Positions 8,045-63,757 of a stretch of 64,000 nt of DNA are shown piece after piece (the stretch's first letter is position 1; each line of letters begins with the position of its first letter). The notes under the pieces were generated by a model. The model ran no database searches. It worked only from the letters and a program-made list of their open reading frames with translations, and was not told the origin of the DNA. The DNA comes from a virus. The position numbers and the translations under genes are program-made. The stretch covers positions 1 through 64,000 of IMG/VR virus record IMGVR_UViG_3300021171_000008; one strand, given 5' to 3'.

Positions 8045-8048
8045 CGCC

Positions 8049-8768
8049 ATGAACGGCTCCGGCTACAACCCTTCGGCGATTCAGATCCGGCGGCAGCTCG
8101 GCGCCACGCGGCCGGTTCGCCCGCCGAGACTGCCGACGGCGAACGCGAACCCGAAGCTCGGCGGATCGCTCAACCTTCACTCGCTGATGCGGCCAGGGCG
8201 CGCGAGCGGCGGCGCAATCAACGACAGCCCCGAGACCCCGTTCACGGGCGGCATCATGTCGGTTGGAGCTGGTCGCGCCGATGACGTCCCGATGCACGTT
8301 CCTGACGGGGCTTATGTCGTGCCGGCGTGGGGGGTCAGCCACCTGGGCGAGGGGAACACGATGAGCGGCATGGCCATGCTCAAGGGCATGTTCGGGCAGC
8401 CGTGGGGCGCGGCGAAAGCGCCGTGGGGCGCGCCGCAGCCCAAGTCGATGTCGGGGGGAAAGGGCGTCCCGATCCCGAAGCCTCCGCCCATGCATTTTCA
8501 GCCGCCGAATTTCTATCCGCAGGGCATGTCAGCGGAGAACCCCGCGCTCGCGGACCCGAGGCAGAAGCACGGCGGCGCGGCGCGCGGCCCCGGTCCGGCA
8601 GTCCCGATTAACGCGAGCGGCGGCGAGTTCATTATCGCTCCAGATGAGGTCGCACGGATCGGGGACGGTAATATCGACAAAGGACACCTTGTCCTCGACA
8701 AGTGGATCACGCTTCTCAAGAAGGAAGCCGCGAAGACACTGATGAAGCTACCGGGACCAGCCAAATGA
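8049..8768 (+). CDS. Virion/internal protein with xAxGG motifs (GRADDVP..ASGGEFII)
   Basis: ORF in structural operon; 8607-8636 matches the decoded neighbouring array. Confidence 0.6.
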   Translation: MNGSGYNPSAIQIRRQLGATRPVRPPRLPTANANPKLGGSLNLHSLMRPGRASGGAINDSPETPFTGGIMSVGAGRADDVPMHVPDGAYVVPAWGVSHLGEGNTMSGMAMLKGMFGQPWGAAKAPWGAPQPKSMSGGKGVPIPKPPPMHFQPPNFYPQGMSAENPALADPRQKHGGAARGPGPAVPINASGGEFIIAPDEVARIGDGNIDKGHLVLDKWITLLKKEAAKTLMKLPGPAK

Positions 8769-8800
8769 ACTGGGAGGACGAGACGTGACCCTCATCCTCC

Positions 8801-8914
8801 CAGCCTTGGCGTGCCTGCCTGCCTTGCCTTGCCTCGCCATGCCACGCCAAGCCTCGCGCCGCCCCGCCGAGCCGCGCCTTGCCATGCCTCGCATGGCCAC
8901 CGCCATGCCCCGCC
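8801..8914 (-). ncRNA. Stand-alone GGY-NN pentamer array (putative guide RNA unit B)
   Basis: GGC-NN periodicity; upstream promoter-like TTGCAG..TATCT; 5' hairpin GCATGGC-GGTG-GCCATGC; 3' hairpin 8770-8803. Confidence 0.8.
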
Positions 8915-8954
8915 CAGATAACATGATTTGCACGAACTGCAAGGGCGCTCAGCC

Positions 8955-9521
8955 ATGAAAGATTTTAGCCGCGAGCACGAGAACGAGCTGCGCTCGACGC
9001 CACCGCGCATCCCGATCCGCTTAGCCGACGACGACGACGAGTTGGGCATCTTAGACATGTGCCGGTTGATGCACCGCGAGCAGCCCTATCACAGCTTAAA
9101 CATCGGCAAGGTCGCGGCGATGATTCGGCTAGCCATCCATCAAGGGCCGGAGCGGCGCGGCATCCTCGGCGTCATTGGCGAGCGCGATCATCTCAGGGCG
9201 GCCATCTTCCTGCTGATCGAGCCGATTTGGTACAGCGACGACTGGCAGTTGTTGGAATTTTTCAATTTCGTGCGGCCCGAATATCGGCGCCAAGCTTACG
9301 CCCAAGACCTCATCGCTTACGCCAAGCGCTGCTCCGATCAGATCGGCCTCGATCTCACCATCGGCGTGTTCTCGAACGTCCGGACCGCCGCGAAGATCCG
9401 GCTCTATCGCCGCTGGGTCCCGCAGTTCGGCGCGTTCTTCTGTTACGCGCCGCCGAACCGGAAACCGTTTATCGATCGCCTCGCTGAAATGACCCCCGCG
9501 AACAAAGTCGCTGCGGAGTAG
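8955..9521 (+). CDS. GNAT-fold acetyltransferase-like protein
   Basis: IRLADDDD start, FNFVRPEYRRQAYAQDLIAYAK motif A-like; usual position before podovirus ejection genes. Confidence 0.6.
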   Translation: MKDFSREHENELRSTPPRIPIRLADDDDELGILDMCRLMHREQPYHSLNIGKVAAMIRLAIHQGPERRGILGVIGERDHLRAAIFLLIEPIWYSDDWQLLEFFNFVRPEYRRQAYAQDLIAYAKRCSDQIGLDLTIGVFSNVRTAAKIRLYRRWVPQFGAFFCYAPPNRKPFIDRLAEMTPANKVAAE

Positions 9522-9523
9522 CC

Positions 9524-12500
9524 ATGGGCTCCAAGGGCGGGACCACTCAGCAAACGTCATCCTCTTCGGGGCCGCCTCCCCAGGTAATGGCTGAGTATCA
9601 GGGCTTAGTCGACCGCGCCACCAACGTCGCGAACCAGCCCTATCAACCCTACACGGGCGAACAGGTCGCCCCGCTGACCAGCCAGACGCAGGCAGGGCTC
9701 GGGGGAATCAGTCAGTACGCGGGCGCGGCGCAGCCCTATCTCGGTGCGGCGGGGGCGATGACGATGGGAGCGAGCGCTCCCGTCAATCCCGCGCAATTCC
9801 AAGGCATGGGTAGCCTTAGTCCTTTCATGAATCCGTACACGTCCTCGGTCGTCGACACGACCCAGGCCGAAATGAATAATCAGAACCAACAGCAAAGCCA
9901 ATTTTTAAACAGCGCCAACATCAGTTCTGGGGCGTTTGGCGGCGACCGCGCCGGCATCGGTCAATCGATCCTCGCCAACCAGCAGCAGCTCGCCGAAGCG
10001 CCGACGATCGCGGGCCTCAACCAAGCGAACTTCACCCAGGCGATGAGCGACTGGACGGGCCAGCAAGGCGTCAACCTCGCGGCGCAGCAAGCCAACCGGA
10101 GCGCCCAGCTCGCGGGCGGCGCCCAGCTCGGGCAGATCGGCTTGAGCGCGCAGAACGCGGGCATGCAGGGCGCACAGGCGGACATCCAGGCGGGCATGAT
10201 CCCGCAGCAGGAACAGCAGGCGATCGATACCGCCGCCCAGCAGATGTACCAGCAGGGCCAAGCCTATCCGTTCACGACGACGGGATGGCTCGGCAATATT
10301 ATCGAGGGCGTTGGCGGCCAATCAGGAGGCCAGAGCCAGACCACTTCGCCGGGACCGAACTCGATCACGCAGGGGCTCGGCGCGGCGTCGCAAGGCCTCG
10401 GCCTTCTCACCAGCCTCATCCCCGGCCTCTCGGACGTGCGCGCGAAGGAAAACGTGGAGGAGATCGGCAAGACCTACGACGGGCAGAACATCTACCGCTA
10501 CAATTTCAAGGGCGATCCGCGCACGCAGATCGGCTTAATCGCGCAGGAGGAGGCCTACCACGATCCTGGCAGCGTCCAGCGCGTTGGCATGGGCGATCTG
10601 CTCGGCATCGACTACGAGCGCGCGACGGAAGGCGCGGCCGAGCGCGGCCATTTCGCCGACGGCGGCGCGCCGGATCAAGGACCGCCTCCTGGCGGCATGA
10701 CGCAGGGCGTGACGCAGGGCGCCGGCCAGCCGCAGCAAAGACCGCAAGCGATGACGCCCGATCAGTCGCTCATGTACATGGGCGATCCCAGCGCGCGCGC
10801 GGGCATGGGCTCGTTCGCTCTCATGGGCGGGACCAATATGCATCCCCAGCCCGAGATGCCGATCGCGGGATCGCGAGGAGCGCCGCCGCCTCAAGTTCCA
10901 CTGGGTGGAGGTGGAGCTGGCCTGTCGCCTCTCGGCGCCCCCTTGGAGCCTATCTTCACAAGCCAACCCCAAGGCCAAGGGAGCGGCGGCGCGTGGCGCG
11001 GCGGGCGGCAGGGCTTCCAAGGCGGCGGCCAAGCCCCCGTCGCGGGTAACCCCGCGTTCGGCATGGCGACTCCTGGGTTCCAGCCTGGGGTCGATCCGCT
11101 GAATGATCTCGCGGGCGTTAACGAGGCCGTCTTCGGCGAGGAGACCGCCGGCTCCAAGAACCCCTACTACGGGCTCGATTTTGACCAGATCCAGGCGATC
11201 AGCGGCGGGCAGTGGATGCCGCCGCAGACCGGCGCGGTGCAGCCGGACTATGGGAACCTCCAGACCTCGCCCGAGTATGGCGCGGCCGAGTCTTCTCTCG
11301 CAGGGCAATTCGGAGGCGGCTACACGCCGGGATCGACGACGCTTGGACCCGGCGGCGCGGGCCCGACAGCTCCTGCCGCCAATGCTGGTGGCGGCAGCGG
11401 CTTCATGGGCGCCCCGGCGATGGGCGGGATTGTCGGCGGAGCGCGGAGTCCTGGCGCGATGGGCGCGGCCGGCGCGACGCAAGGCGGGCTGTCTCGGGGC
11501 CAGCTCTCCGATATCTTTAGCGAATATTTTGGCGGCGAGTCGCCTGCGCAGGCAGCGCCGCCGCAGGGGCCCCTCCCAGGTCACGCGGACGGTGGTCGCA
11601 TCGAGCGGCAGATGGGCGGTCCGACGTCGACTCTGGCGCTCCCCATCAATCAAGGGCCATGGGGCGTTCAGAGCGGCGGGAGCGGCGGCGGGACCCAGCC
11701 AGCGGCGAATAGTGGCGGCGGGGGCGGGCCATGGACGCAGATGATGGGCACCCCGAGCGCCATAAACCCGAGCGGCAACGCGCAAGTCGGCATGGCGAAC
11801 TGGGCCGGGTTCTCAGGCCCGCAAGGCATGATGGAAGCGGACGCGGAAGGCTTTAGGGCCGACGGAGGAGGAGTGAACATGAACGGTCGCTCTGGCTTCC
11901 AACGCGGAGGCAGCCCCTTCACCACGTACCAGCCCACGGCGAACCCGGCGCGCAATCCGCCGACCTACACCGCGCTCGACCTCTCGCACCTGTTCGGGGG
12001 CGGGCAGCCGCAGCAAGCGCCGCGCGCCATCCAGATCCAGCGTCAGCTCGGGCAGGCGCGCGCCAAGGCGGCGGTTCAGCGCGGCATGGTGCGCCCTCGC
12101 GTCATCGCGCCGGACCCGGTGACCGGCCAGCATCACGACATCACGCCGCAACCGGACCATCCTTCGACCGCGCGCTATCCCGGTTGGCCGACTCCTGGCC
12201 CTGGCTCTCCCGAAGGGCTGCCGATGTCGGCGCCACGATCGGTCGCGCCCGTGGGAGGTCAAGATCCCCAAGCCGCGAGGGGCCCGCTGCAGCTGAGTTC
12301 GCGCGGTCCTGGCATGGGCTATCCGGCCAGAGGCATAGTCCCGGCAGAGGCAGCAGGAACGCCTGAAGCAGGAACGCTGACCAATGCGGCGTTCCGGTAT
12401 CCCATGCCGAAGCAAGAGGTCCCTGCGAGATCTTCGCCGATTTATGAGGGCGGGCGCGGCCTCGCGACGGTCACGCCGCCGCTTGAGGCACGCAGGAGTG

Positions 12501-17964: not shown

Positions 17965-18093
17965 GGTTTCGACTCCTGTAGGCGACATAAATATAGCGTT
18001 ATTTGCACGATCTGCAAGTGCCGGTCAGGGCTCGCACACCTTGTCCGAAGCGGCAGTCGGTACCATGCTTCAGCGGACGCGATGGTCATCAGG

Positions 18094-18423: not shown

Positions 18424-18481
18424 CTGGCTGTCTCTCGCGTCACCCTTCCGATCCCCTACCATGACGTGAGAGACACCGAAA

Positions 18482-18787: not shown

Positions 18788-18796
18788 GAGGCCGCC

Positions 18797-43022: not shown

Positions 43023-43411
43023 TGGTTCAGAGTCCCGCTCGCGTTCCTCAGACGTAGACTTTCCCGCTGCCGCCCTCTTCGATGTCGATCGGGTCATATT
43101 CGCCCGTGACCGCGCCGAACTCGTCAGGCTGCAACAGATATTCGCGGACATGTTCCCAGCCGCGATCTGCGGTGCGAGGCACGATGCGCAAAAGATGCTC
43201 CGGCGGGAACCCAAAGGACTCGTCCTCAAAATCAACGCGCACGCAGTCCGCCGTCTCGCGCTCGCTTCCAGTGACAGTCGCCAACTCGCAAGCGACCAGC
43301 CGTCCGTCCCAGTCGGCAATGTCATCGCCCTCAAGGTCCACTCGGTCGCCAATGCGAATATCGGCGGCCTTCACTTCGATCATGCATTCCATGGTCTTCG
43401 ACTCCGTTGGT

Positions 43412-43467
43412 AGGCTCATCAGTGGCGGCCAAACCGCCAGACGCGCGCCAGAGCGCGCGTTTCGCCT
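43412..43467 (-). ncRNA. Hammerhead ribozyme, type II
   Basis: AGGC-GAAAC-[GCGCGC/GCGCGC]-GUC-[UGGCGG/CCGCCA]-CUGAUGA-GCCU. Confidence 0.92.
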
Positions 43468-43646: not shown

Positions 43647-44039
43647 TCATGCTGCCCTCCCGAGCGGGAACCGCACCGGCAGAGCCTCGCGGGCAAGACG
43701 ATCGCGCTTGGCCGCCATGGCCGCCTTGTAGGCCTCGACAATGCCCCCGTGCATGCCGACGCGGTCGAGGGAGAGTTTGCCGGTCGCCCAGGCGGCGCGA
43801 TCGGCGTTAGCCTGCGCCGCGAACTCAGCGCGAATCTTCGCGCGGTGTTTGGCGTCGTCGACGTGCGCCGTCTTCTGCCCGCTCGGGGCATTAGTCGGCC
43901 AAGTGTCGACCGCGACCTTGCGGCCGGGTTTCGCTGGCTTGGTGTAAATTGGCCCCCAGGACTCGGGCTCGACGCGCTTGCCGTCGCGATAGGGCAAGTC
44001 CTCGAACGAAAACGGGCGCAGATCAGATTCGCGTGACAT
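43647..44039 (-). CDS. Hypothetical early protein
   Basis: Follows promoter 44084-44112 and GGAGTCGAACCC RBS. Confidence 0.55.
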   Translation of the reverse strand: MSRESDLRPFSFEDLPYRDGKRVEPESWGPIYTKPAKPGRKVAVDTWPTNAPSGQKTAHVDDAKHRAKIRAEFAAQANADRAAWATGKLSLDRVGMHGGIVEAYKAAMAAKRDRLAREALPVRFPLGRAA

Positions 44040-44083
44040 GGGTTCGACTCCAGTTTGGGCGCCGTAGGCGGCGCCTGTCCCTC

Positions 44084-44112
44084 AAATAGGGGGTTACGGT
44101 ACGCCGGTCAAG
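44084..44112 (-). promoter_or_regulatory. Sigma70-type promoter of early operon
   Basis: CTTGAC-N17-CTATTT. Confidence 0.75.
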
Positions 44113-44443
44113 CTATTTTCGTCGTCATCGTGACGATTTTCTCGAGCCGGAACGGACTCCTTATTACATTGTCCCCAGCCAGTCCCCTTCCCAGGCTCGA
44201 GGAACAGCCAGTTTGTCCCGCGCTTGTCCCCAGCTCGGACATGTCCTCGTTTGTCCCTCGCAGCTGTCCCTTTTCGGTCCCTCAAGCCACAAAACGCGAT
44301 AGGCGATTAAACGGCCAGAAACGGTCGCTGAGACGCCCCTTTTTGCAGTCGATGCAGATCCCCTAGATTGCAGAGCGCCCGTCAGCGCCCTGTTTAAAGC
44401 CCAGCAAAGGGCTAAAGGTGTTACAACCTAAGCGTCAGTTGTG

Positions 44444-44746
44444 TTAGGTCGGTTTCAGGTTTTTGAGGTAATTTTCCGAAATTTGCGCGCTAAGCCTTTG
44501 GCGACCTTCAGTGTACCAAGCTGGGGTTCTTTCCCTCGCAAGCGGATTCGGCGGCTTAGGCGGGACATGCAGGCTCAATCCCCGACGCCGTTGACCGAGG
44601 GCATAGATCTGCCGGACCCGCTCGCGCGACAAGCCAAACTCATCGCCGACCGATCGCAGCGTTCGCCCCGATAGGACCGCAAGCCTTATTGCCTCATCGC
44701 GTTCCGGCGTCCTCGTCCAATTGCCTTCAGCGATCCCGTACAGCAT
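44444..44746 (-). CDS. Sigma70 region-4-like HTH protein
   Basis: GRTLRSVGDEFGLSRERVRQI. Confidence 0.7.
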   Translation of the reverse strand: MLYGIAEGNWTRTPERDEAIRLAVLSGRTLRSVGDEFGLSRERVRQIYALGQRRRGLSLHVPPKPPNPLARERTPAWYTEGRQRLSAQISENYLKNLKPT

Positions 44747-46120
44747 GGTTCGACTCCTCACTCCACTTGCAGATCATGCAAATGGACGCCAGGAATGGAT
44801 CGCGGTCAAGAGCGCTTCAGTGGATCTCGTCGTCGACGTCGAAGTCTCGCTTGGGCGATGGCTCACGGTCGTCGATCGCTTGCCAGTTGCGCTCGGTCTT
44901 TTGAGCGCGAATTTTCGCCAGCTCTTTGTCCGTGAGCGTGCCGAACCGATCGACCAGCTCAAGCTTGCCGCCGTTGTACCAAGCCGCGCCTTTGGTCGGA
45001 TTGATGAGCCGACGCCAGACGTCGCCGTGCTCGGCCTGGAAGCGCAACCGTCGATCGCGGACGAAAGCGCTGTCCGCAATGATCTCCACCGTGTCAGGGA
45101 TCTCGCCACGCCGCAGATAGGGCCACAGGCGCGCAGCGATGATCCACTCGCGGCAATTGGGCTTGCGGAACGCCTCATGCGCCCAACGCCCGCAGTGGGC
45201 TAATTCGCCGCTATCGCGAATCCAGGCCAAATCGCCATAACGCCGCTCGGTCAGTACGCGCGCCGTCAAAGTGCGGTCCGAGCGTTTCGCGGCCGGTCCA
45301 GGGCGCCGAATGGAACAGGTGATCAGCACCGCGCGCGTGGCTCGATTGATCACCGCCCAAGGCTCAAACAACGCCAGAACCTCATCAGCGCTCGCCAGGG
45401 TTGGACTTCCCCGCCTCGCAATTTCAATCATTTGCGCCTCCGCTACCAAAACCTGTCAAGCGAAATCGCCACTCCAAAAACCCCAATCTTATCAAAGCCA
45501 AAACCCTAAGCCCTTGACATCCTTCAACTGTCCCTGCTATCCCCTCGCGCGCGAATCCCTAACAAATTACAGCAGCCCACTGGGCCTAGGCGTCGCTAGG
45601 CCCCCTGTGGGGATGCGACTGCAAATGATCAACCATAAAAAACCTTCGATCTTAGGGCTTCTAGGGGACGTTAGCGTCCCTATCTCCTCCCTTTCTGCAC
45701 CTTCTGCAAGCGCTTCTAAGCGCTTCGCGCCTTACGGCGAAGCTTAGAAGCTCTCTCCTATAAAAAGACAGCACAGAGCCTCTACCTTCGTTCCCCTTCA
45801 CCCGCTGGTCCCTTCCTCGGAGACTGAAACGAGTGTCGTTTTGTCCTGTCCCTGGCCGGTTCTGCGCCGGTTGCGCGTCGAGCGCTGCGAGCGGGCTCAA
45901 ACAGGGGCTAAGTGCTTGATGTTGCTGAGTGCTGTGCGTGTATCTGAAGATTGTGAGACACGCAATAAACGCATACCACTTCCGGGGCGTGCATCGTGCC
46001 AAATCAGTGCCAATAGAGGGCCGCTGCGGCGGCAGGAGGGTGGGGGGGGGACCGCCCATCTTGAACTTTTAGGCTTGTAGCGTTGAGGTAAAAATCTGGT
46101 TGGTTTGGCGGAGATTGAAC

Positions 46121-46699
46121 ATGGCAGATCCGGGAAAGCCAAGGGCACGGAAGAGCAGGGCGCTGACGAGTGAGGAATTGGCGGAGCGGGAGAAGCAGGC
46201 GAAGGAGATGGAGGGTTCGATTGAGCAGATGTCGGCGAATGGTCTGACGCCTCAGGAGATCAGTTTGCTGACGGGGTTGAGCGCGGATCGGCTGTACAGG
46301 AAGTACAAGGGGCAGATGATGAAGGGCGGGGCGAGGCGGACGAACGAGGTTGCGCAGGCGGCGTATTTGATGGCGACGGGGGGACCGGAGAAGAACTGGC
46401 GACAGGCTGACGCGAGTATGAACAAATTTTGGTTAGAGCGTCGTGGTGGGCCGATCTGGGCGCCGCCGAAGCCGGATCAGGAAGCGGGGCCGGACTTGAC
46501 GCGGTTGAGTGTTCCGCAATTGATTGAGTTGGAGCGGGCGTTGCGGCCGCTAGCGAGACATCCGGTGCTGATTGATGCCGAGGTCGAATCTACCGAGCCA
46601 CGAGGCGGTGGTGGCGGAGTTGATGAAAAGGGAGCTGGGGATTTCGTCGATGGAGGCGTCGGCGAGCGTGTCGACGGTTCGGGAGCGGTGCCGGAATAG
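46121..46699 (+). CDS. Terminase small subunit (putative)
   Basis: HTH-like N-half, KFWLERRGG; directly upstream of and overlapping TerL. Confidence 0.65.
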   Translation: MADPGKPRARKSRALTSEELAEREKQAKEMEGSIEQMSANGLTPQEISLLTGLSADRLYRKYKGQMMKGGARRTNEVAQAAYLMATGGPEKNWRQADASMNKFWLERRGGPIWAPPKPDQEAGPDLTRLSVPQLIELERALRPLARHPVLIDAEVESTEPRGGGGGVDEKGAGDFVDGGVGERVDGSGAVPE

Positions 46700-48233
46700 T
46701 TTGGTGAATTTTGTTGAGGAGGCGTGGCCGATTTTGGAGCCCCGGATGGTGTTTGTGAAGGGGCCTTTGGTCGAGGCGATCTGCGAGCATTTGGAAGCGG
46801 TTTCGGCGGGGCTGATTACGCGGCTGTTGATCAATGTTCCGCCTGGGTCGGCGAAGTCGCTTTTGGTCAGTGTGCTTTGGCCGAGCTGGGAATGGGGCCC
46901 TCGGGGTCTGACGTCGTATCGGTACATCAGCTCCAGTTTTGCGGAGAGCGCGTGCGTTCGGGACGTTCGCAAGATGCGGATGTTGGTGACCAGCGACTGG
47001 TATCAGCGTCACTGGCCGCATGTTGAGTTGACGCGCGGTGGGGAGCTGTCGTTTGAAAATTCGATGACGGGGACGCGGGACGGGGTTGCGTTCTCCAGTC
47101 TGACTAGCCGGCGCGGTGACAGATTGATTCTGGATGACCCGCACAGTGTGGAGAAGGCGGAGAGCCCGAACGATCGGGAGAAGGCGACGCGGCGGTTTCG
47201 GGAGAGCGCGGTGAACCGTCTGAACGATCAGGCGCGCTCGGCGATCGTTGTGGTGATGCAGCGGCTGCACGAGGCGGACATCAGCGGGGTGATCATGGAG
47301 TACATGCCCGATTATTGTTTGTTGGTTTTGCCGATGGAGTACGAATCGTCGCGGCATTGCGAAACGAGCATTGGATTTAGCGACTGGCGGCGCAGCGAGG
47401 GGGAGCTTTTGTTTCCGGCGCGGTGGGGCCGGCAGGAGGTTGAGAACCTCAAGCGGGACATGGACAAATTTGCGTGGGCTGGCCAGTACCAGCAGCGGCC
47501 GGCGCCGCGAGGCGGGGGGCTGTTTCCGTATGGCGGCTGGGAATATTGGCATCGCGGGATTGCGCTGACGTTCGGCAGGAACGAATCGCAATATCCGGAC
47601 ATGGACGTGATCCTGGGCTCGCTGGACCCGGCTTACGGCGAGAAGCAGGAAGCCGATTTTTCGGCCTTCATCGTGCTCGGGCTCTGGACGAACCATCGCG
47701 GGGTGCAACAGGCGATGTTGATGGCTTGCTGGCAGAAGCGGCTGGCGTTGAACGATCTGGTCGAGGAGGTGATCAAATCGTGCAGAAAATTGAAGGTCGA
47801 TCGGCTCTTAATCGAGCTGAAAGCGTCAGGGATCTCGGTCGCGCAGGAGATTTCGCGGCTGACGCGGGACGAGGAATTTGCGGTCCAGCGGATCGATCCG
47901 GGTAATATGGACAAGGTTTCGCGCGCGAACGCGCTGTCGCATTTGTGGGGCGAGGAGCAGGCGGATGGCAGTGTGCGCAAGGGCGTCATCTGGTGCCCAG
48001 CTCAGACGCAGAGTAACGGGGCGGTTTGGCCTCGGGATTGGGCCGAGCTGTGCATGAGCCAGTGCGCGAGCTTCCCGAAAGGGAAATTCGACGACATCGT
48101 TGACGCCTTGTGTCAGGCGCTGAAGTGGTGCCGCGATCGGGGCTTGCTGAAGAAGTCGACCGAGGTCCAGGCGGAGGAATACGCGGAGCTGATGGCGTCG
48201 CCGCTTCCCCCGCAGCCGCTGTACCCGATTTGA
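46575..48233 (+). CDS. terL: Terminase large subunit
   Basis: LLINVPPGSAKS, LILDDPH, VVMQRLHE, QYQQRP, IELKASG, FPKGKFDDIVDA. Confidence 0.95.
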   Translation: MPRSNLPSHEAVVAELMKRELGISSMEASASVSTVRERCRNSLVNFVEEAWPILEPRMVFVKGPLVEAICEHLEAVSAGLITRLLINVPPGSAKSLLVSVLWPSWEWGPRGLTSYRYISSSFAESACVRDVRKMRMLVTSDWYQRHWPHVELTRGGELSFENSMTGTRDGVAFSSLTSRRGDRLILDDPHSVEKAESPNDREKATRRFRESAVNRLNDQARSAIVVVMQRLHEADISGVIMEYMPDYCLLVLPMEYESSRHCETSIGFSDWRRSEGELLFPARWGRQEVENLKRDMDKFAWAGQYQQRPAPRGGGLFPYGGWEYWHRGIALTFGRNESQYPDMDVILGSLDPAYGEKQEADFSAFIVLGLWTNHRGVQQAMLMACWQKRLALNDLVEEVIKSCRKLKVDRLLIELKASGISVAQEISRLTRDEEFAVQRIDPGNMDKVSRANALSHLWGEEQADGSVRKGVIWCPAQTQSNGAVWPRDWAELCMSQCASFPKGKFDDIVDALCQALKWCRDRGLLKKSTEVQAEEYAELMASPLPPQPLYPI

Positions 48234-50273: not shown

Positions 50274-50350
50274 GCCCAGGTAGCTCAGTTCGGTAGAGCG
50301 CTGCGTTGAAGGCGCAGGCGTCGGAGGTTCGATTCCTTCCTTGGGCACCA
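50274..50350 (+). tRNA. trnF: tRNA-Phe(GAA) with encoded CCA
   Basis: Full cloverleaf: GCCCAGG/CTTGGGC acceptor, CTGCG-TTGAAGG-CGCAG anticodon arm, GGAGG-TTCGATT-CCTTC T arm. Confidence 0.9.
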
Positions 50351-51209: not shown

Positions 51210-51295
51210 CATTTCTGGGCCTTGACGTTTCGCAGATCGTGCAAATATGGGCGAAACCACGGCCTACCGTTGGCTATTACAGCAAAGGAGTCGAA

Positions 51296-52111
51296 ATGAA
51301 GTCCCCGAGGGTGACGGCTAAGAAAGAATCCGTCGAAATCAAACCGATTGAGATGCGCAAATTCGTCGTCCATCTGGTCGGCGAGAATCTTCTCATGCAC
51401 CGCTTCGCGCAAAAAGCGTGGCAAGAACTGCTTTTGCCCGCCTCGAAAGGGAAGGCGGCCGAAGGCGCGCCGCTCAAGCATGATCCTCTGAGCGAGTTTC
51501 GCGATTCGCTCTATCGCTGCCGCGACGTCCAGGCGCCAACCCTGTTTCACTTGCCGAACGGCATCGTGAGCAAGGCCATGGCGGCGGCGGCGCTCGACAT
51601 GGGCGGGGCGTTCAAGACACAAATCCAGCGGCTGACCATGGTTCTGACGCCGACGCTGCATTTGTACGGCGTGCCGGAGCTGCGCATGGACATGGTGCGC
51701 AACTCCGATATGGCCAGGACGCCGGATGTGCGGACGCGGCCGATCTTTAAGCGCTGGGCGCTCCCCAATGTGGTGATCCAGTACAAGGTCGCGCCGCTCA
51801 ACGACAGCCAGATGCTGAATCTGCTCGCGGGCGCCGGCCAGATCGTCGGTTTCGGTGATGGTCGCCAGCAAAAGGGCGGTGGCCCGGAGGGCGGCCCGTT
51901 CGGCTGCTTCCGCATCGTCAGCGATCACAATGATCCGGAGCTGAAGGAGATCATGGCGACCGGCGGGCGGGCCGCACAGCAGGCCGCGTGGACCGATCCG
52001 GAGATGTTCGACGAGAACACCGCCGAATTGATGGACTGGTTCAACGTTGAGATCGATCGCCGCCACAAGCCTCGTCGGGGCGATGGCGCCGCCGTGCAAG
52101 TGGGAGCTTGA
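51296..52111 (+). CDS. Cas7/RAMP-like RNA-binding protein, putative effector of the GGY-NN arrays
   Basis: VHLVGENLLMH first strand, HLPNGIVSKAMAAAA helix, C-terminal Gly-rich loop AGQIVGFGDGRQQKGGG..FGCFRI; own promoter CTTGAC-N17-AATATG at 51221-51249. Confidence 0.75.
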   Translation: MKSPRVTAKKESVEIKPIEMRKFVVHLVGENLLMHRFAQKAWQELLLPASKGKAAEGAPLKHDPLSEFRDSLYRCRDVQAPTLFHLPNGIVSKAMAAAALDMGGAFKTQIQRLTMVLTPTLHLYGVPELRMDMVRNSDMARTPDVRTRPIFKRWALPNVVIQYKVAPLNDSQMLNLLAGAGQIVGFGDGRQQKGGGPEGGPFGCFRIVSDHNDPELKEIMATGGRAAQQAAWTDPEMFDENTAELMDWFNVEIDRRHKPRRGDGAAVQVGA

Positions 52112-52112
52112 A

Positions 52113-52604
52113 ATGGAGCAAGAACGACGAGAGCTTTTGTGGCAGGCGTTGGTCGCCAGCGCTGTTGACGGTCTCATCACGGCCGATAGCGTGGTCGAAG
52201 CCGCGAAGGACCCCGCGAACGTCCTGCACGGCGAGTTCGAGTGGCGGGACGATGTCGCCGCTCACCGATACAGGCTGCAACAGGCGCGGCAGCTGATCCG
52301 GATCTATTCCCCGCGAGTGGATTACATCTCGATCAAGGACGAGGCGCCGGTCGAGCGCGACATCGTCTACTTGCACGATCCGCGCGTCGGCCCGCGTGTC
52401 CAGGCCTACGTGTCGTCGGCCACTCTCGCGGACGATGGCGACGCTTCGCTCACGGCGGTCTTGCTCGAACTCAGGTCCGTCAGCGCGGCGGTGACGCGGC
52501 TCGCGCGCGTCGCTCATGCTCTGGGAGTCGAGTGCCCGACTGGGGATCTGGAGGCCGCCGTCCAGGCGTTGGCTGAGCGTCTCCAGGGGCGGAATGCAGC
52601 GTAA
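52113..52604 (+). CDS. Partner protein in RAMP operon
   Basis: VVEAAKDPANVLHGEFEWRDDVAAHRYRLQQARQLIR; lies between RAMP gene and array. Confidence 0.7.
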   Translation: MEQERRELLWQALVASAVDGLITADSVVEAAKDPANVLHGEFEWRDDVAAHRYRLQQARQLIRIYSPRVDYISIKDEAPVERDIVYLHDPRVGPRVQAYVSSATLADDGDASLTAVLLELRSVSAAVTRLARVAHALGVECPTGDLEAAVQALAERLQGRNAA

Positions 52605-52614
52605 GTGCGTATCA

Positions 52615-52884
52615 GGCAAGGCAGGCACGGTTAGGTGGGGCCGGGTAAGGCGAGGCAGGGTCAGGTTAGGTCCGGTGAGGCAGAGCAAGGCAGGCGCGGC
52701 TGGGCTGGGCAAGCCTTGGGCGGCATGGCTGGGCGCGCTTTGGTATGGCTCGGCAGGGCTCGGCAGGCACGGCGTGGCAAGGCGCGGCGAGGCTTGTCAA
52801 GGCATGGCTGGGCTAGGCGAGGCAGGCGAGGCAAGGCGAGGCTCGGTCTGGTGCGGCCGGGTCAGGCGAGGCAGGCCATGGCAC
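52615..52884 (+). ncRNA. Main GGY-NN pentamer array (four units separated by GGCA), putative guide RNAs
   Basis: About 50 GGY-NN units starting 10 nt after the partner gene stop and ending at a terminator. Confidence 0.85.
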
Positions 52885-52889
52885 GGGGG

Positions 52890-52915
52890 AGGGGGCGGCT
52901 TCGGCCGCCCCCTTT
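52890..52915 (+). terminator. Intrinsic terminator after array
   Basis: AGGGGGCGGC-TTCG-GCCGCCCCCT-TT. Confidence 0.8.
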
Positions 52916-53566
52916 CTATTTGTCGACCATCCTCGACACGACCGATCGCGTGAACGGGCGGCCGGACGAGCTGACAAAGCCCTGGTTCGCCAGCGCTGCG
53001 CGCACCGCGTTGAGCGATGCGCCTGCCTGACGCAGCTGCTTTGCGATCTTGGTCATCTTCGGGTCCATTTCGGCCCAGGATTTTCTGCCCTCGCACTTGC
53101 CGGTCGTGGCCTTCTTGCGGTCGCGCGCCGCCTTGAGCTTGGCGACCGTCAATGCCCGGTCGAACTCAGCGACCGCGCCCAGGATCTGCCGGACCAGGGA
53201 CGCCGTCGGCGTGTCCTCGACGAAGCTCCCAGGCGAATCGACGGCGACCAACTCGACGCCGAGATCTTGAAGCATCTTCCAGCCGGTTTCCTGCACCATG
53301 AGATCGCGGGCGAAGCGGTTGGCGGTCTCGACGAGGATCGTTCTCACGCCATTCCCGGCGATCCGCTGGAGCATGAGGCCGAAGCCCTCCCGCTGGGTGA
53401 CCGGATCGGCGCCGGAGACGGCGGCGTCGTAATATTCGGCGACGATCGAGATATCGTTTCGCTCGGCGAACTGGCGGACGGCCCGCTCTTGGCGGCCGAG
53501 GCTGTCCTTGTCGACGCCGACGTTGGTGGCGGACGAGGTTCGGAAGTAGGCGACGGCTTTTTTCAC
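52916..53566 (-). CDS. Serine recombinase (resolvase family) with C-terminal HTH
   Basis: AVAYFRTSS, SLGRQ, DAAVSG, NRFARD, ILGAVAEFDR. Confidence 0.9.
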   Translation of the reverse strand: MKKAVAYFRTSSATNVGVDKDSLGRQERAVRQFAERNDISIVAEYYDAAVSGADPVTQREGFGLMLQRIAGNGVRTILVETANRFARDLMVQETGWKMLQDLGVELVAVDSPGSFVEDTPTASLVRQILGAVAEFDRALTVAKLKAARDRKKATTGKCEGRKSWAEMDPKMTKIAKQLRQAGASLNAVRAALANQGFVSSSGRPFTRSVVSRMVDK

Positions 53567-54287: not shown

Positions 54288-54644
54288 ATGATCGAGATCG
54301 GACGACGCGGATTCATCACTGGGCTTGCCGCTCTCGTCGCCGCTCCGGCGATCATTCGCGTCGCGCCGCTCATGCCGATCTCGACGCGGCTCACCCCGCT
54401 CTATGTGCCGATCGATTGGCTCGCGGATGCGATCATCGACATGGGGAATCGGGTTGAGAGGACCGGGTTGGGGAAGCTTGAGAGGATCGAGTTGGAGAGG
54501 CTTGAGAGGATCGAGTTGGAGAAGCATGCGTGGTCGAGGCCGCTGGCGGACAACTGGATCAATCTCCGCGATTACGATCCTGACTTCGTCCGGCAATGGA
54601 CCGGCAATGGCGAACTCACGAGTCCGGAGTACTGGCTGTCATGA
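54288..54644 (+). CDS. Small protein with twin-arginine-like leader
   Basis: IGRRGFITGLAALVAAPA; internal LERIE duplication. Confidence 0.5.
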   Translation: MIEIGRRGFITGLAALVAAPAIIRVAPLMPISTRLTPLYVPIDWLADAIIDMGNRVERTGLGKLERIELERLERIELEKHAWSRPLADNWINLRDYDPDFVRQWTGNGELTSPEYWLS

Positions 54645-55569: not shown

Positions 55570-55812
55570 ATGCCGGCGATCCTAGAGAAGGCGGTCAAAG
55601 CCATTAAGAAATCGAGCCCTGGCGTGAACCCGTGGGCTGTGGCGACGAGTACGCTGCAAAAGGCGGGCGAGCTGAAGAAGGGCACGAATCAGCCGACTAA
55701 GCTTGGCGTGAAGCGCGGCAAGATGTCGCGCGCAGAGCGGCACGCGAAGCCGCTCGCGATCGGCGGCGCGGCGAAGGCGCCCTCACTCGGGAGAACTGGG
55801 CGCCATGGCTGA
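55570..55812 (+). CDS. Small basic protein
   Basis: Ends GGAAKAPSLGRTGR, shared with ORF 62867. Confidence 0.55.
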   Translation: MPAILEKAVKAIKKSSPGVNPWAVATSTLQKAGELKKGTNQPTKLGVKRGKMSRAERHAKPLAIGGAAKAPSLGRTGRHG

Positions 55813-56451
55813 CGAGATCGAACCGACTCAGCCGCCGCCGCCCAAGGCTGCTCCGGCAGTGGACGAAGGGCTTTCCGCCTGGGCGAATCTAGTCCGCGAC
55901 CATCTTACGGCGCAGAGCGGCGTCGAGATCGTTGGAAAGGACGGTGGATCGGTCCATTTCAAGTTTCGCGGCCAGGAGTTCTCGATGTACATCCAGCGGG
56001 TCCGCTAGCCTGCCTCTTGACGAGTCGCCCAGTCGCTGCGCGAAATCCTCGCCCGCAAGTAGGCGAGGAACCCCATGGCCCAATCTCCCCAACGTCCGGC
56101 GTCGCCCAGTCGGTCCGCGCCGCCCACCCGAGAACCGCCCCCGCGCCATCCCGCGCAGCCGCCGGCCGCCCGTCCTGGCGTTGCCCAGCGCGATCAGCAG
56201 CCCCAGCCGGAACCAGAGCCAGAGAAGGAAGAGAGAGCTGTCAATCCGGCCGAGGCCGGTGCGCTCTTCCGCGCTGGTCACCGCCTCAAGAGACGGGGCG
56301 ATCCACCGGACAAATGGTTCGCGGCGTTCCGACTGCACAACACTCTGGTGATCTGCTACCCGATCGATGACGAGATCGAGAAGCAAGTGCTGGATCAGGA
56401 TCTGGTCCTTGCGGACGAACCGCCTACCCAGTGACGTGACGGAGGTCCGCT

Positions 56452-59208: not shown

Positions 59209-59466
59209 GCCAAGCACTCGATCCCCAGGAAGCGGCCACCCTGTTTTACTCGGGCTCGGTGATGGCTTTTGTTGGCGCGCCCACAGAGAGCTTCGTTTGC
59301 GGTCAATGGCAGGGCCAGCGCGCCATGGTCTTCCCGATTCCGTTCGATGACCCGGTCGCCTACTTCACCGCTCACCCAGTTATGCTTTTCAACCCGGACG
59401 CGCCTGGAATGACGGCGACGATCACGGTCGGAACTCCCTACACGCCGGCTCACAAGGAGAGGAAAC

Positions 59467-59907
59467 ATGGTCGAACTTAACACTGGACAATCTGTCGATC
59501 TGACCGTCGCCTACACCGATGCTCAGGGCGCACCCGCCCACCCGCCTGGGCCGGTCAATTGGACCTCGTCTTCCCCCTCGATCGCGACCGTCTCGGCCGG
59601 GGACGATGACACCCAGGCGACCGTGGTTTCGGTTGCCGATGGACCCGCGACCATCACCGCCGAGTCGAACGGGATCACTTGCGCCATCGATCTGATGGTT
59701 GGCGGAGGCGAGGCCGGGGCGAGTGAGGGGGAAATCACGGCCGGCGAGCCCTACGACACGACGGGGACGCCGGTACAGCCTCTGCCGGATCAGCCGCCCC
59801 CAGGCCCTGGTTGGCTACCGGGTCAGCGGCCAGGGGTGCAGCGGCCGGGTCAGCCGGCCCCGCGACCGGGTCAGCCGGTGGTGCGGACAACGACGATTCG
59901 CAGGTAA
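59467..59907 (+). CDS. Ig-like (Big_2) domain virion protein
   Basis: VNWTSSSPSIATV..GPATITAESNG. Confidence 0.7.
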   Translation: MVELNTGQSVDLTVAYTDAQGAPAHPPGPVNWTSSSPSIATVSAGDDDTQATVVSVADGPATITAESNGITCAIDLMVGGGEAGASEGEITAGEPYDTTGTPVQPLPDQPPPGPGWLPGQRPGVQRPGQPAPRPGQPVVRTTTIRR

Positions 59908-62232
59908 ATGGTCGACGATCTCGGCGACTATGATGTCACCCCTGTCGAGGGAAACCCCTTCGGCTCGATGGCGTCGTCGCCGAACGACTACGACGTCTCG
60001 CCGGTCGATCACGATCCTTTCGCTGGCGCTGGCGAAAACCCGGCGCCAGACCAATTTGAGCTAGCCTCGCGGCAGCCCGAGGCCACGCCGTCGAGCGCAG
60101 GCAGGCCACCGCTCGATCCTGGCGATCGCGATCTCCTCATCAAAACGGTTTTCGGCGAGGCGAGCGGCGAGCCGCCGCTTGGTCAGGCTGGCATCGCCCA
60201 CGCCATCCTGAACCGGGTCCGCGCTGGCGACTATGGCTCGGGGATCGCGGGCGTCGTGAAGGCTCCGGCTGCCGGCTTGAACCCGCGCCTTGGCTACCAT
60301 GAGTTTTCGCCCTGGAACACGGGGCGCGCCACCGAGGGCAATCCCACCGCGCAGCACCTCTCGCCAGACAATCCGAATCCGGTTCTGGCCAGGGCCTACC
60401 GCAACATCGGCGACGTCGTCGACAAGGCCTATTCGGGTCTCATACCCGATCCGACCGGCGGCGCGACCCACTATTACGGGCGTATGCGCGGTCACCCGTC
60501 TTGGTCGCCGCCGCTCGCCGCGCAGAATCAGGTCCGGATCGGGGGCACGACGTTCGTCGGCCGCGAGCACGGCCCAGGCGAAATAGCGAGCCAGACGGCC
60601 AGCGGCTACGCTGGCGGCGGTCCAGTGCAGCTCAACGCAGACTTGCGGCGCCGCCTCTCGATGATCACGCGGCCTCGCTTCGCCGAGGGCGGCGCGCCGG
60701 ACGATGATCCACTGGGCTCCAGTGTCACCATGGCGTCTGACCAAACCGCCGACGCGCCCATTGCCTACACGCCTGAAGACATCGACCAACCGGGGCCGAT
60801 GACGGAAACGCTGGCCCATTACGCAGGGAACCCGGCGCACGCGATGCCGATGCGGGTCGGCGCCGCGATCGGCGAGGAGGCCAAGCGCATGGGGCAGGGG
60901 CTCTGGAGCGCGGCCACGGTCCCTGGCGACGTCGCTACCGGCAAAGCCTCGATGGCGGACCCGGAAACACAGCAGCGGGTCACGAGCCTCGCCGCGTCGT
61001 TGCCAGGAGGGGGGCCGGAGGCGGCGCTCGGCGCGCGCGGGCCGGTTGGCGCGGCGGCCAAGGCGGTCAAGGGCGCTCCGGCGACGCGCGAGCTTAATGT
61101 CTGGAATCCGACGACCGGCCTGTGGGAGGGCCCGAAGCCGACGCTGAACCCGCCGGAGGGCGTGCATTACGATCCGATGTTCAATTTCGATCCGGCTTTG
61201 ATGAACAAGGTGCCGGACGTGCCGCAGTTTGAATTGCAGCGCTATGACCCGCCGCGTGGCGTCTCGGACCGCATGCGCGATCTGGTGACCAACTCGGACG
61301 TCCGCGCTCAGATGATCGGCATCGTCCGCAACGGCATGCAAACGGTGGGGCTGAGCTGGTACAATACCGGCCAGCTTCGCGCGATGTTCTTAAAGGAGCT
61401 TGGCGACGACGCCGGCCAGCAGGCGTTCGAGAAGTATATGAACCTCGTGTCGGCCACGAGCCCCGAGAATAAAATCCCGCAGAACATCCGGACTGCCAGC
61501 TATTTCTATGAGCGCGACGCCGCAGGCGTGCCGCCGCCGGAAAGAGGGGACCCGATCGCGCAGCCTTACGGCTCGAAAGCGCAGAAGCTGCATCAGCAAA
61601 ACGTGGGCAACGTCCTGACCGAGGGCTACGACGTCCTCAAGAACCCGAAGCCGCCGTCCTTCGTTCAGAATTTGATGGGCAATTACGCCCCCGGCACGAT
61701 GGACCGGCACGCCTTCAAGTTGCCAGCGATTCTCTCGCGTGATCCGCGTTTCTTGGAGACGTCGTTCACGCCGGAAAAGGGCGTGGAGCCGGTGCGCCCA
61801 CAACGGATGTTCCAAAACGGTGAACTGTCGATAGACGACGCCGTCAATCAGCCGACGATGTGGGCTGGCATGCCGAACAAGAACGAGTATGCCGCGCTTG
61901 AGGGCTGGTACAAGTCGATCGGCGACGAGCTGGGGATCACGCCTGCCCAGGTGCAGGCGTCGGCCTGGGTTGGCGGGGGACATATCACGGGTCTGGCCTC
62001 GGCCGCCGACGAGACCTTCCTGCATTCCTTCCAGGGACGGGTGTTCAATACCGCTCACCACACCGGCCAAACGCCCTCAGAGGTGGTCAAGCGGATGATC
62101 AGGGGCGAGCAGCCTTTGCTTTCCGGCGGGCCGGGGATGGCTCCGACAGCAGCTCAAACTTCGACGGCTGGGGCGGGAGGTTCGCCTCCGCCACCATCTG
62201 ATCAAGCAGAGCCCGGACATCCGTTTTATTGA
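59908..62232 (+). CDS. Multidomain virion protein: SleB/Hydrolase_2 cell-wall hydrolase plus uncharacterised C-terminal domain
   Basis: TVFGEASGEP..ILNRV..EFSPWN..DPTGGATHYY; C-terminal SATSP..FVQNLMG..MDRHA..TPAQVQASAW. Confidence 0.7.
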   Translation: MVDDLGDYDVTPVEGNPFGSMASSPNDYDVSPVDHDPFAGAGENPAPDQFELASRQPEATPSSAGRPPLDPGDRDLLIKTVFGEASGEPPLGQAGIAHAILNRVRAGDYGSGIAGVVKAPAAGLNPRLGYHEFSPWNTGRATEGNPTAQHLSPDNPNPVLARAYRNIGDVVDKAYSGLIPDPTGGATHYYGRMRGHPSWSPPLAAQNQVRIGGTTFVGREHGPGEIASQTASGYAGGGPVQLNADLRRRLSMITRPRFAEGGAPDDDPLGSSVTMASDQTADAPIAYTPEDIDQPGPMTETLAHYAGNPAHAMPMRVGAAIGEEAKRMGQGLWSAATVPGDVATGKASMADPETQQRVTSLAASLPGGGPEAALGARGPVGAAAKAVKGAPATRELNVWNPTTGLWEGPKPTLNPPEGVHYDPMFNFDPALMNKVPDVPQFELQRYDPPRGVSDRMRDLVTNSDVRAQMIGIVRNGMQTVGLSWYNTGQLRAMFLKELGDDAGQQAFEKYMNLVSATSPENKIPQNIRTASYFYERDAAGVPPPERGDPIAQPYGSKAQKLHQQNVGNVLTEGYDVLKNPKPPSFVQNLMGNYAPGTMDRHAFKLPAILSRDPRFLETSFTPEKGVEPVRPQRMFQNGELSIDDAVNQPTMWAGMPNKNEYAALEGWYKSIGDELGITPAQVQASAWVGGGHITGLASAADETFLHSFQGRVFNTAHHTGQTPSEVVKRMIRGEQPLLSGGPGMAPTAAQTSTAGAGGSPPPPSDQAEPGHPFY

Positions 62233-62684
62233 GAAGCTCGTTGAGCGGCAGCCGCTCAAGCACGGTTCCGCCGTCCTCGCCGAAGACTTCCAGCTCCCAG
62301 CGGCCACCTAAGCTGCCGTGCTCCCGCCAGAGCGGCCAAGCTTTGTAAGCGCTCATCGTCGACTCTCTTTAAGCGCCGGGGCCTTCAGCGGCCTAGTCCC
62401 CGGCAGTCCGTTCTCACCCGCTAGCTTAGGCGTCCGCGAACCTGTATCCCTACTATTTCCGCGCCGTTGGGTCTTTCGGCAACGCGGCGATCAAGCGTTG
62501 GTGGCGCTCATATTCGGCGAGGCCGACGGCGAGGTCGGGGTGCTTTCCGGCATGGATGCTTTGCATCTTGGAGGCAAACCGAACCGGGCCATTGGTCTTG
62601 CCATGTTTGTCGATGTCCTGCGTAAGCGTGCTCATTCGACTCTCCTATTTGCATGACTGGGGCGGGACCCACGGCCCCGCCCCC

Positions 62685-62762
62685 TGCCTGCCTCGCCGCG
62701 CCTTGCCTTGCGCCGCCCTGCCACGCCTCGCCAAGCCTTGCCTTGACAGGCCTTGCCTCGCC
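62685..62762 (-). ncRNA. Stand-alone GGY-NN pentamer array (putative guide RNA unit C)
   Basis: 14 pentamers plus 2 GGCA; promoter TTGCAA-N17-TATCTT (62813-62785); 5' and 3' hairpins. Confidence 0.82.
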
Positions 62763-62866
62763 TCGGTGCATTTGCACCAACTGCAAGATAAGGGCCCTTT
62801 CGCGCAATTGCAATCGGCGCTAGGAATTGCCGCGTTGAAAGGCTGGACCCCAAAGAGGGTTCCGCC

Positions 62867-63757
62867 ATGGGCGAACACAGTCAAAAGAGCTTCACGGCCG
62901 ACAAACTCCGAAAGTTTGAGGTCTCGGGCAAAAACGGCGGCTCCGGAAACGGAGACAAGGGCGCTTCGGCAGACGATTTCGGGCGGAAAGCCGCCCGCAC
63001 GAGCGATTCTTCCGCGTTCGCCGCTGGCGGCGCCGCGAAGGCGCCCTCGCTTGGTCGCGCCGGCCGCGCGAAAGGCGGACGCATCAATCGCCCTGCGGTG
63101 GCTTCGGCTGACTTTAAGCCGTCGAAGACCGGCGGCAATTATCCCGGCAAGATTCCAGACAACGAGGGCGGCAAGGCCCGCAATCTTTCTATGCTCACCG
63201 ATGGCGGTCCGCGATCCTATGGCGATCGGCCGTTGATCATTGGCCATGGCGACCAAAACGCCATGCGCGCTAGAGGCGGCAAGGTTTCGCGCGCCAGGGG
63301 CGGCCGAACCGAAATTAGTGATCTGAGGGACGACAAGACTTCGCTCGCCAGAGGCGGGCGGGTCGGCCGCGCGCACGGCGGCAAGGCCAAGGGCGCGAAG
63401 GGCAAAACCGTCGTCAATGTCATCGTGGGCGGCAAAGGCGATCAGCAGCAGCCGCCTCCGACGCCTCCGATCATGCCGCACCCGATGGTGCCTCCTCCAC
63501 CTCCTCCGCCGCCGCCGCAGGGGATGCCTCCTGGTGGGATGCCGCCGGGGATGCCTCCTGGCGCTGGTATGCCGCCTCCGCCGCCGCCGAGACCGCCTAT
63601 GCCGCCTCCGGGTGGCATGCCGCCGGGAATGCCTCCTCCGGGCATGGGCCGCGCGCACGGCGGGCGGATCTCCGAGAAGTTCGGCGCGGGCTCCGGCCGA
63701 GGCCGGATGGAGAAGACCAAGCGCCAGGGCCACGGGAAGGTGAAGCTAGCCGAATGA
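62867..63757 (+). CDS. Basic Gly/Pro-rich virion protein with repeated RAxGG motifs
   Basis: RAKGG, RARGG, RAHGG repeats; 62900-62935 matches the decoded adjacent array. Confidence 0.65.
   Translation: MGEHSQKSFTADKLRKFEVSGKNGGSGNGDKGASADDFGRKAARTSDSSAFAAGGAAKAPSLGRAGRAKGGRINRPAVASADFKPSKTGGNYPGKIPDNEGGKARNLSMLTDGGPRSYGDRPLIIGHGDQNAMRARGGKVSRARGGRTEISDLRDDKTSLARGGRVGRAHGGKAKGAKGKTVVNVIVGGKGDQQQPPPTPPIMPHPMVPPPPPPPPPQGMPPGGMPPGMPPGAGMPPPPPPRPPMPPPGGMPPGMPPPGMGRAHGGRISEKFGAGSGRGRMEKTKRQGHGKVKLAE

Follow-up and report, generated by a model that had tools for sequence, protein, structure and literature searches.

Background

Systems named VIPR (Viral Interference Programmable Repeat), already published as such in three 2026 bioRxiv preprints, comprise a RAMP protein (Vipr), an accessory gene (vap) and guide RNAs (vrRNAs) of 9-16 GGY/NN repeats, NN being a variable dinucleotide, with targets in competing phages (10.64898/2026.04.26.720920). 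Here we describe a predicted VIPR locus in the first 64 kb (64,000 nucleotides (nt), hereafter the window) of the single-contig virus record IMGVR_UViG_3300021171_000008 from IMG/VR, which totals 78,422 bp; near-identical copies of the window sequence were found in many soil metagenomes. The guides of this locus appear to spell alleles of sibling phages, and the phage's own copies of the same genes differ from the guides at only a few of the letters read, in each case including a silent change of serine codon family.

In the published systems, the NN dinucleotides recognise double-stranded DNA with one base skipped, mostly the wobble base. Natural targets lie on both strands, silencing occurs from either strand without a protospacer adjacent motif (PAM), and self hits at an NN match of at least 80% were absent from the clades searched, namely SUSP1, P. 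fulva and types III and V (10.64898/2026.04.26.720920). Cryo-electron microscopy showed the GGY triplets gripped by Vipr protomers, with the NNs paired to the target strand in an R-loop triplex (10.64898/2026.04.26.720927). Solo vrRNAs have also been described, and guides against other vrRNAs were found to score lower on their own locus, which was taken as autoimmunity avoidance; the same study claims that escape of a target needs amino-acid changes (10.64898/2026.10.15.759431).

Results and discussion

The predicted VIPR locus of the window phage

Three arrays of NN+GGY pentamers were found in the window: A (52622-52882, plus strand), B (8900-8803, minus strand) and C (62764-62690, minus strand). 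The unit is 5 nt long, a variable dinucleotide and then GGC or GGT, with GGC/GGT present in at least 80% of the units, and the units form blocks of 9-16. Within array A, abutting guides are joined by a GGCAGGC junction, and the 3' end of all three arrays is GGCAGGC(A) followed by a GC-rich hairpin. The components are as follows:

51296-52111, plus strand: vipr, 271 amino acids (aa), a Cas7-like RAMP protein with the glycine-rich loop GFGDGRQQKGGG
52113-52604, plus strand: candidate vap accessory gene, 163 aa, directly after vipr
52622-52691, plus strand: guide A1 of array A, 13 NN (AC TA GG CG AA GA AG CA TA CC GA AG AA)
52692-52763, plus strand: guide A2, the degenerate middle part of array A; target search negative
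52764-52823, plus strand: guide A3 of array A, 11 NN; target search negative
52823-52882, plus strand: guide A4 of array A, 11 NN (GA AA GA TC CT GC CG CA GA AG AT)
52883-52915, plus strand: GC-rich hairpin and T run closing array A, read directly from the letters; a consensus terminator scan made no call
8803-8900, minus strand: solo array B, 16 NN, terminating in GGCAGGCA and then a hairpin
62690-62764, minus strand: solo array C, 15 NN, flanked by a hairpin on its 5' side and a GC hairpin on its 3' side

The vipr operon consists of two genes only. An AlphaFold2 (AF2) model of the 271-aa Vipr protein, built from a 33-sequence alignment, reached a predicted local distance difference test score (pLDDT) of 82.5, and all of its top matches in a Foldseek search against the PDB were Csm3/Cas7 chains, at a probability of ~1.0. 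Homologues of Vipr are abundant in metagenomes, the closest at 84% and 75% identity, and GGY/NN arrays were found at 30 of 66 loci with such homologues (64 metagenomic and 2 viral), the strand of the array always being that of the gene. The 163-aa open reading frame (ORF) after vipr had no Pfam match, yielded four proteins in a homologue search including the window's own, and gave a poor AF2 model, with a pLDDT of 61. Judged from sequence and modelled fold, the window phage carries a VIPR system made up of a Vipr protein, a candidate accessory gene, a staggered array (A) and two solo guide genes (B and C).

Beyond the window, the last 14 kb of the genome held zero additional arrays and zero additional matches, consensus scans for promoters and terminators in the vicinity of the arrays called nothing, and a CRISPR array was not found in the window by repeat scan, tandem-repeat scan or Rfam. 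Two other readings of the arrays were discarded. Translation of the arrays was set aside, the open frames that run across them being a trivial product of the 5-nt period, and reading the units as NNG codons is a misfit, since D, N, F, I, Y and S are among the residues matched.

Arrays of this kind also occur in mycobacteriophages. One example is Mycobacterium phage Donkeykong (NC_051648, 2413-3512): what is annotated there as 'hypothetical protein' gp48 is a ~360-nt GGCNN array with GGCAGGC junctions, and gp49 (248 aa), the next gene, is a Vipr homologue (hhalign probability 98.6%, E 8e-16); a gp48-type array was present in ~27 mycobacteriophage records of the search.

With the type II VIPR exemplars, which come from Escherichia phage SUSP1 and from a prophage of Pseudomonas fulva, the locus shares the GGY/NN pentamers, the one-base skip at the wobble position, a RAMP gene adjoining the arrays, carriage by a phage, targets in rival phages and pairing with one DNA strand. 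It departs from them in the size of Vipr (271 aa, compared to ~20 kDa) and in the layout of its guides, which abut via GGCAGGC and resemble the published 'staggered array' (fig. S18), whereas the exemplars have a pseudoknot tail per guide. The predicted targets also differ, being core genes of siblings (terminase, recombinase and virion genes) instead of satellite or lysogeny regulators, and, unlike the type II exemplars as published, the window phage holds near-targets of its own that are set apart by silent codon-family switches. The published solo vrRNAs (10.64898/2026.10.15.759431) likewise are stand-alone guide genes distant from vipr with self scores below rival scores. They reside, however, in VIPR-null phages or satellites and are aimed at vipr, other vrRNAs or host REP decoys, while the solo guides of the window lie in a VIPR-positive phage and adjoin its own, predicted resistant, allele of the targeted gene; the escape route would also differ, an amino-acid change in that study compared to a silent Ser/Arg/Leu family switch here. 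With the Cas7/Csm3 filaments that form class 1 CRISPR backbones, Vipr shares the RAMP fold, and both filaments present the guide with periodic unpaired bases. Unlike class 1 CRISPR, the window locus is without CRISPR repeats and spacers, other cas genes and an adaptation module, and its guide period of 5 nt (2 read, 3 held) is set against a target period of 3.

Near-matches of the guides to the phage's own genes

Array dinucleotides taken at period 5 were compared with window dinucleotides taken at period 3, on both strands and in all frames, using thresholds of 7/9, 8/10, 8/11 and 9/12, and significance was assessed by a calibrated minimum p from 500 shuffles of NN order. This unbiased scan returned exactly the four sites named by a first-pass annotation of the window, made from the letters and a list of ORFs, and none besides:

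47568-47600, plus strand: guide A1 site in the large terminase gene (TerL), TFGRNESQYPD, 8/11, p < 0.002
53512-53486, minus strand: guide A4 site in a serine recombinase gene (Pfam Resolvase, E 1e-25), DKDSLGRQE, 7/9, p 0.056 (marginal)
8607-8636 (listed to 8639), plus strand: guide B site in gene 7854-8768 (gene B), INASGGEFII, 8/10, p 0.008
62900-62935, plus strand: guide C site in gene 62867-63757 (gene C), DKLRKFEVSGKN, 10/12, p < 0.002

Each of the four sites lies in frame; the skipped base falls on codon position 3 and the NNs are identical to the coding strand, as the first-pass annotation had stated. Its proposal that codon positions 1-2 are what the guides read, by pairing with the template strand of the DNA, coincides with the published VIPR mechanism (10.64898/2026.04.26.720920, 10.64898/2026.04.26.720927). 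That all guides are mRNA-sense is true of these four, too few to make a rule; targets on both strands are reported in the first of these preprints.

Between each guide and the phage's own copy of its target, two or three of the dinucleotides read are different. Each of the four sites includes the TCN/AGY serine swap noted in the first pass (guide/self AG/TCG for A1, TC/AGC for A4, TC/AGC for B and AG/TCG for C), and the A1 site has, in addition, an arginine family mismatch (guide CG, self AGG). Silent family switches thereby make up 5/9 of the guide-self mismatches, compared to ~10% of read-letter differences genome-wide. Guides A2 and A3 had no self match.

Chance matches drawn from a large search space were considered as a source of the self sites. 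A score of 7/9 over 9 dinucleotides is indeed near chance, being seen in 1-13% of shuffles and also at the wrong spacing of 6; at 9 NN, spacings other than period 3 were no better than chance, and A4 taken alone is marginal. Because the short 9-NN match is near chance, the weight rests on the longer matches and on comparative data. The longer matches beat all or nearly all of the 500 shuffles, the same thresholds gave no out-of-frame or antisense matches, and perfect matches of 10-12 NN occur at the homologous sites of siblings. A chance origin was therefore rejected on the basis of the unbiased scan and the shuffles, and its probability is practically negligible.

Sibling phages as predicted targets

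An exact search of IMG/VR with the 12-NN core of guide C led to a single contig of 78,058 bp (G001), a collinear sibling of the window phage at 65-88% nucleotide identity. G001 has no arrays, its B and C insertion points are empty (with a gap of 14 nt at B), and other genes occupy the position of the vipr cassette; the siblings L007, L009 and L011 are likewise without cassette and arrays.

The sibling sites, all in frame and with the skip at codon position 3, fit the guides better than the phage's own. Guide C matches 12/12 of its core in G001 (GAC AAA CTG AAA AAG TTT GAG GTC AGT GGC AAA AAC), compared to 10/12 in self, and guide A1 matches 11/11 in TerL of L007-L011 (ACC TAT GGC CGC AAC GAG AGC CAA TAT CCG GAC), compared to 8/11. 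Guide A4 finds its complete core (10/10) in both G001 and L007, scores 9/10 in L009 as well as L011, and has 7/10 in self. Guide B reaches 10/11 in most siblings, G001 among them, the serine being the sole difference, and also 10/11 in L022, which has the guide's TCN serine together with another mismatch, while self scores 8/11. Over the full guides, nucleotide identity to self is 0.62-0.77, and the best sibling values are 0.92 (A1), 0.91 (A4), 0.87 (C) and 0.72 (B). Guides A2 and A3 had no target in self, G001 or the sibling loci, and exact searches of IMG/VR and of GTDB genomes with A3 were negative.

Contigs from four soil runs contained both forms in the same samples: contigs with the cassette, and a contig joining 51251 to 52968 without it. 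On these sequence matches, the targets of the guides are sibling phages without the cassette, with perfect or near-perfect sites, which bears out the phage-versus-phage targeting proposed in the first pass.

The cassette slot (51251-52968) is swappable: at this position L009 has a 237-aa ORF with an HNH-like motif and G001 has two larger ORFs. A 97%-identical sibling contig (L101) carries at the same locus a vipr only 34% identical to that of the window, and it ends before any array. Outside the window phage, the predicted resistant TerL allele was found in only two contigs, 96-98% identical and of the same lineage, L101 being one of them.

Which side changed at each site

At the A1 site, all six siblings carry the guide-matching state, and three changes are confined to self: Tyr>Phe, Arg CGC>AGG and Ser AGC>TCG. 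Across TerL, 24/552 codons are self-private at read letters, three of which fall in the 11-codon A1 footprint, and only 23/542 eleven-codon windows hold at least three self-private changes. A similar picture was obtained at the A4 site, where TCG and GCC are common to four siblings and self has AGC and GGC (Ser TCG>AGC, Ala>Gly). The comparison supports self-recoding at two of the four sites, terminase and recombinase, where the own allele appears uniquely derived.

The other two sites are arranged differently. At the C site, self (TCG) shares its serine family with most siblings, and the guide's AG family is present only in G001 (AGT); the other mismatch, self Arg CGA against guide AA, reflects a self-private Lys>Arg. 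At the B site, the AGC of self belongs to the majority serine family, the guide's TC family is found only in L022 (TCA), and the other mismatch, self Ile against guide Val, is a self-private Val>Ile. With the majority family in self and the rare family in the guide, these alignments give no sign of a serine switch in self at B and C; there, it seems to be the guide that is tuned to a switched variant. The family switching of the own allele that underlies the self-immunity put forward in the first pass is thus supported for terminase and recombinase, but not in that form for B and C.

Two further clusters of self-private change were observed in TerL. Codons 403-407 (47778-47792) form a silent patch with two self-private switches, Ser AGC>TCG and Arg CGC>AGA, and a third, Leu CTG>TTG, that L007 has as well; it involves no amino-acid change, has no guide match in the window genome and may be the footprint of another phage's guide. 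Codons 249-260 (47316-47351) hold V>C, Q>L, Leu CT>TT, Ser AG>TC and G>S, and are the sole other TerL region with at least three private changes per 11 codons; a matching guide was not found.

Serine-family switching as background

How much weight the four serine differences can bear depends on how often conserved serines switch family in these phages. The counts of switched among conserved serines were:

Self vs G001, whole genome: 123/646 (19%)
Self vs G001, TerL: 21/43
Self vs G001, recombinase: 6/12
Self vs G001, rest of genome: 96/591 (16%), vs 27/55 for TerL and recombinase together (Fisher p 1e-7)
TerL, pairs of siblings whose proteins are 94-96% identical, with 26-32% four-fold difference: 13-14 of 44
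TerL, columns of conserved Ser in which the family varies among five phages: 27/41, in many patterns that conflict with one another
Gene B vs five close relatives: 1/76
Gene C vs close relatives: 0-1 of 6-16
Two Rhizobium phages that lack arrays, compared with each other: 11/691 in total; TerL 0/20; 3/57 at 38% four-fold difference

Over all comparisons, TerL ranged from 13 to 21 of 42-45 conserved serines and the recombinase from 3/12 to 6/11; in round terms, 30-50% of conserved serines are switched in terminase and recombinase, compared to about 1-5% in controls. A single-step codon model at the divergence of the TerL sibling pairs gave <0.1% (omega <=0.2) or 1.4% (omega 1). Switching thus greatly exceeds expectation in TerL, in the recombinase and in gene 8928-9521, and is near normal in genes B and C. 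The first pass had made its reading depend on serine switching not being equally common genome-wide; the rate proved uneven, with 1/76 in gene B, yet 31-55% of conserved serines are switched in TerL and recombinase. Import of mosaic segments was rejected as the cause, as only some pairs showed a local rise in wobble differences, which was modest, and switches also occur in segments of low divergence. Judging from the codon comparisons, pressure from VIPR would be the simplest cause of the excess.

Gene 8928-9521 (plus strand) is acetyltransferase-like and lies just downstream of array B. Relative to siblings at ~90% protein identity, 3-4 of its 4-5 conserved serines are switched, and all five of its serine columns are polymorphic in family across the clade.

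Against these local backgrounds (~0.33, 0.5, 0.36 and 0.14), the joint chance of a guide-self serine difference at 4/4 sites is estimated at ~0.008; at the genome-wide rate of 0.19 it is 0.0013. These figures bear on a simpler explanation, namely that the guides are aimed at siblings and the near-matches in self are left over from ordinary divergence, the serine differences being incidental. Such an origin would be in line with the frequency of switching throughout TerL and the recombinase, with the common allele in self at B and C, with the lack of a near-self excess at other Vipr loci and with the absence of self hits at an NN match of at least 80% in the clades searched by 10.64898/2026.04.26.720920. 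It does not account well for the joint occurrence of four serine differences, for silent family switches making up 5/9 of the mismatches, or for the three self-private changes clustered in the A1 footprint. In gene B, moreover, the single serine switch between self and L022 falls on the guide-B serine itself, at 8616, and the background invoked as ordinary is 10- to 100-fold above model and controls and so needs a cause of its own. Taken together, we consider this explanation unlikely.

Linkage of guides and own alleles

Guides B, C and A4 lie close to the phage's own homologue of their target, at distances of 167 nt (B), 136 nt (C) and 604 nt (A4); the probability of a random site being equally close is 0.004, 0.004 and 0.015, respectively. 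Arrays B and C are insertions missing from G001 and ~20 sibling loci, and at the B locus no array was found in L021-L032.

One function that would place a guide beside its own site is attenuated self-regulation, in which the own sites, though imperfect, would be weakly targeted, and the phage would use its guides (above all B and C, which lie beside their genes) to tune its late genes, terminase and recombinase. The short distances suit such a role, as do the core nucleotide identity to self of 0.80-0.83, at the 0.8 cut-off of the preprints, and the ability of VIPR to silence from either strand without a PAM (10.64898/2026.04.26.720920). The best match of a regulator, however, should be the one with its own target, whereas the better and often perfect sites are in siblings without the system, and the own terminase allele has moved off the guide through silent changes. 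Self-regulation is less probable than ordinary divergence, and we regard it as very unlikely.

A weapon against a sibling allele that adjoins a resistant, often silently recoded, own allele and is co-inherited with it is familiar from the homing endonuclease genes and marker exclusion of T-even phages. The layout of the window resembles this arrangement, and placing a guide beside a resistant allele may similarly keep the weapon with its antidote. In the window system, unlike with the T-even homing endonucleases, no nuclease was identified, and the characterised type II VIPR silences and does not cut.

Preferred explanation and points that weigh against it

The best explanation overall, to which we assign a probability of roughly 0.7, is that the VIPR guides match alleles of sibling phages, and that the phage's own copies differ from them at a few read letters that always include a silent serine switch. 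In mechanistic terms, Vipr subunits would hold the GGY triplets and present the NN pairs, as published for VIPR; the NN pairs would base-pair with one DNA strand of the gene, skipping every third (wobble) base, and the bound gene would be silenced. The four guides spell, in the form present in siblings without the cassette, stretches that are conserved in the large terminase, in the serine recombinase and in two genes of the virion module. A switch between TCN and AGY alters both read letters and leaves the protein unchanged, and the terminase has an arginine family switch in addition. The differences in the own copies may thus shield the phage from its own guides, and a guide placed beside the resistant allele may keep weapon and antidote together.

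Several results weigh against this explanation. The serine switches at the terminase and recombinase guide sites are individually unremarkable because switching is so common throughout these genes, and read-letter changes along TerL showed no spatial clustering in pairwise tests (p 0.14-0.55). The finding at B and C, that self holds the majority serine family, belongs here as well, as does the core identity to self at the published cut-off, which implies only modest discrimination between own and foreign sites. A perfect target for guide B was found in none of the IMG/VR or GTDB genomes. Near-self matches were not enriched among the guides of other, more distant Vipr loci (2/105 at p<=0.02, with 2.1 expected, in up to 20 kb of context per locus), and none of 90 guides with at least 10 NN from other Vipr loci scored above shuffles on the window phage family. 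Finally, no RNA run was among the listed datasets holding the window stretch.

A wider interpretation is that guides blind to the wobble base imprint codon choice to a measurable degree: in clades at war through VIPR, silent Ser/Arg/Leu switches are a route of escape and self-immunity that drives the 30-50% serine switching, and that guide and resistant allele form poison-antidote haplotypes, which may spread together by recombination in co-infection. This is put forward tentatively, its odds being somewhat below even.

Other features of the window

The following elements lie outside the arrays and their predicted targets:

50274-50347, plus strand: tRNA gene (Rfam, 60.8 bits), ~1 kb upstream of the cassette
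43406-43467, minus strand: type II hammerhead ribozyme (Rfam RF02276, 39.3 bits, gathering score 37)
54454-54525: 24-nt tandem repeat, 3 copies, 89% match
~44000-48000: sharp leap of the GC skew from -0.10 to +0.31, immediately upstream of the terminase gene, which may mark a replication or packaging landmark

The hammerhead is 95% conserved in sibling L007, lies 9 kb from array A and has no adjoining GGY/NN units; arrays interspersed with ribozymes are mentioned for other types in the VIPR preprint.

Implications

According to the VIPR preprints, a target has no silent escape because the wobble base is skipped. A silent change of the read letters is nonetheless open to serine, arginine and leucine. 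The window phage appears to show the Ser/Arg/Leu loophole in use, as family switches separate its own genes from the sibling genes that the guides match. Term searches of 10.64898/2026.04.26.720920 and 10.64898/2026.10.15.759431 turned up no mention of silent Ser/Arg/Leu escape, of the excess of serine switching in targeted genes or of the placement of a guide beside a resistant allele. For VIPR engineering, family switching indicates a simple way to render a gene copy resistant to a guide. If VIPR pressure is what causes the switching, this would explain why, in terminase and recombinase, serine switches are as frequent as ordinary synonymous change, and it would provide a sequence-only signature for VIPR-targeted genes. 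The position of the guides beside resistant alleles, in turn, suggests a selfish, drive-like logic.

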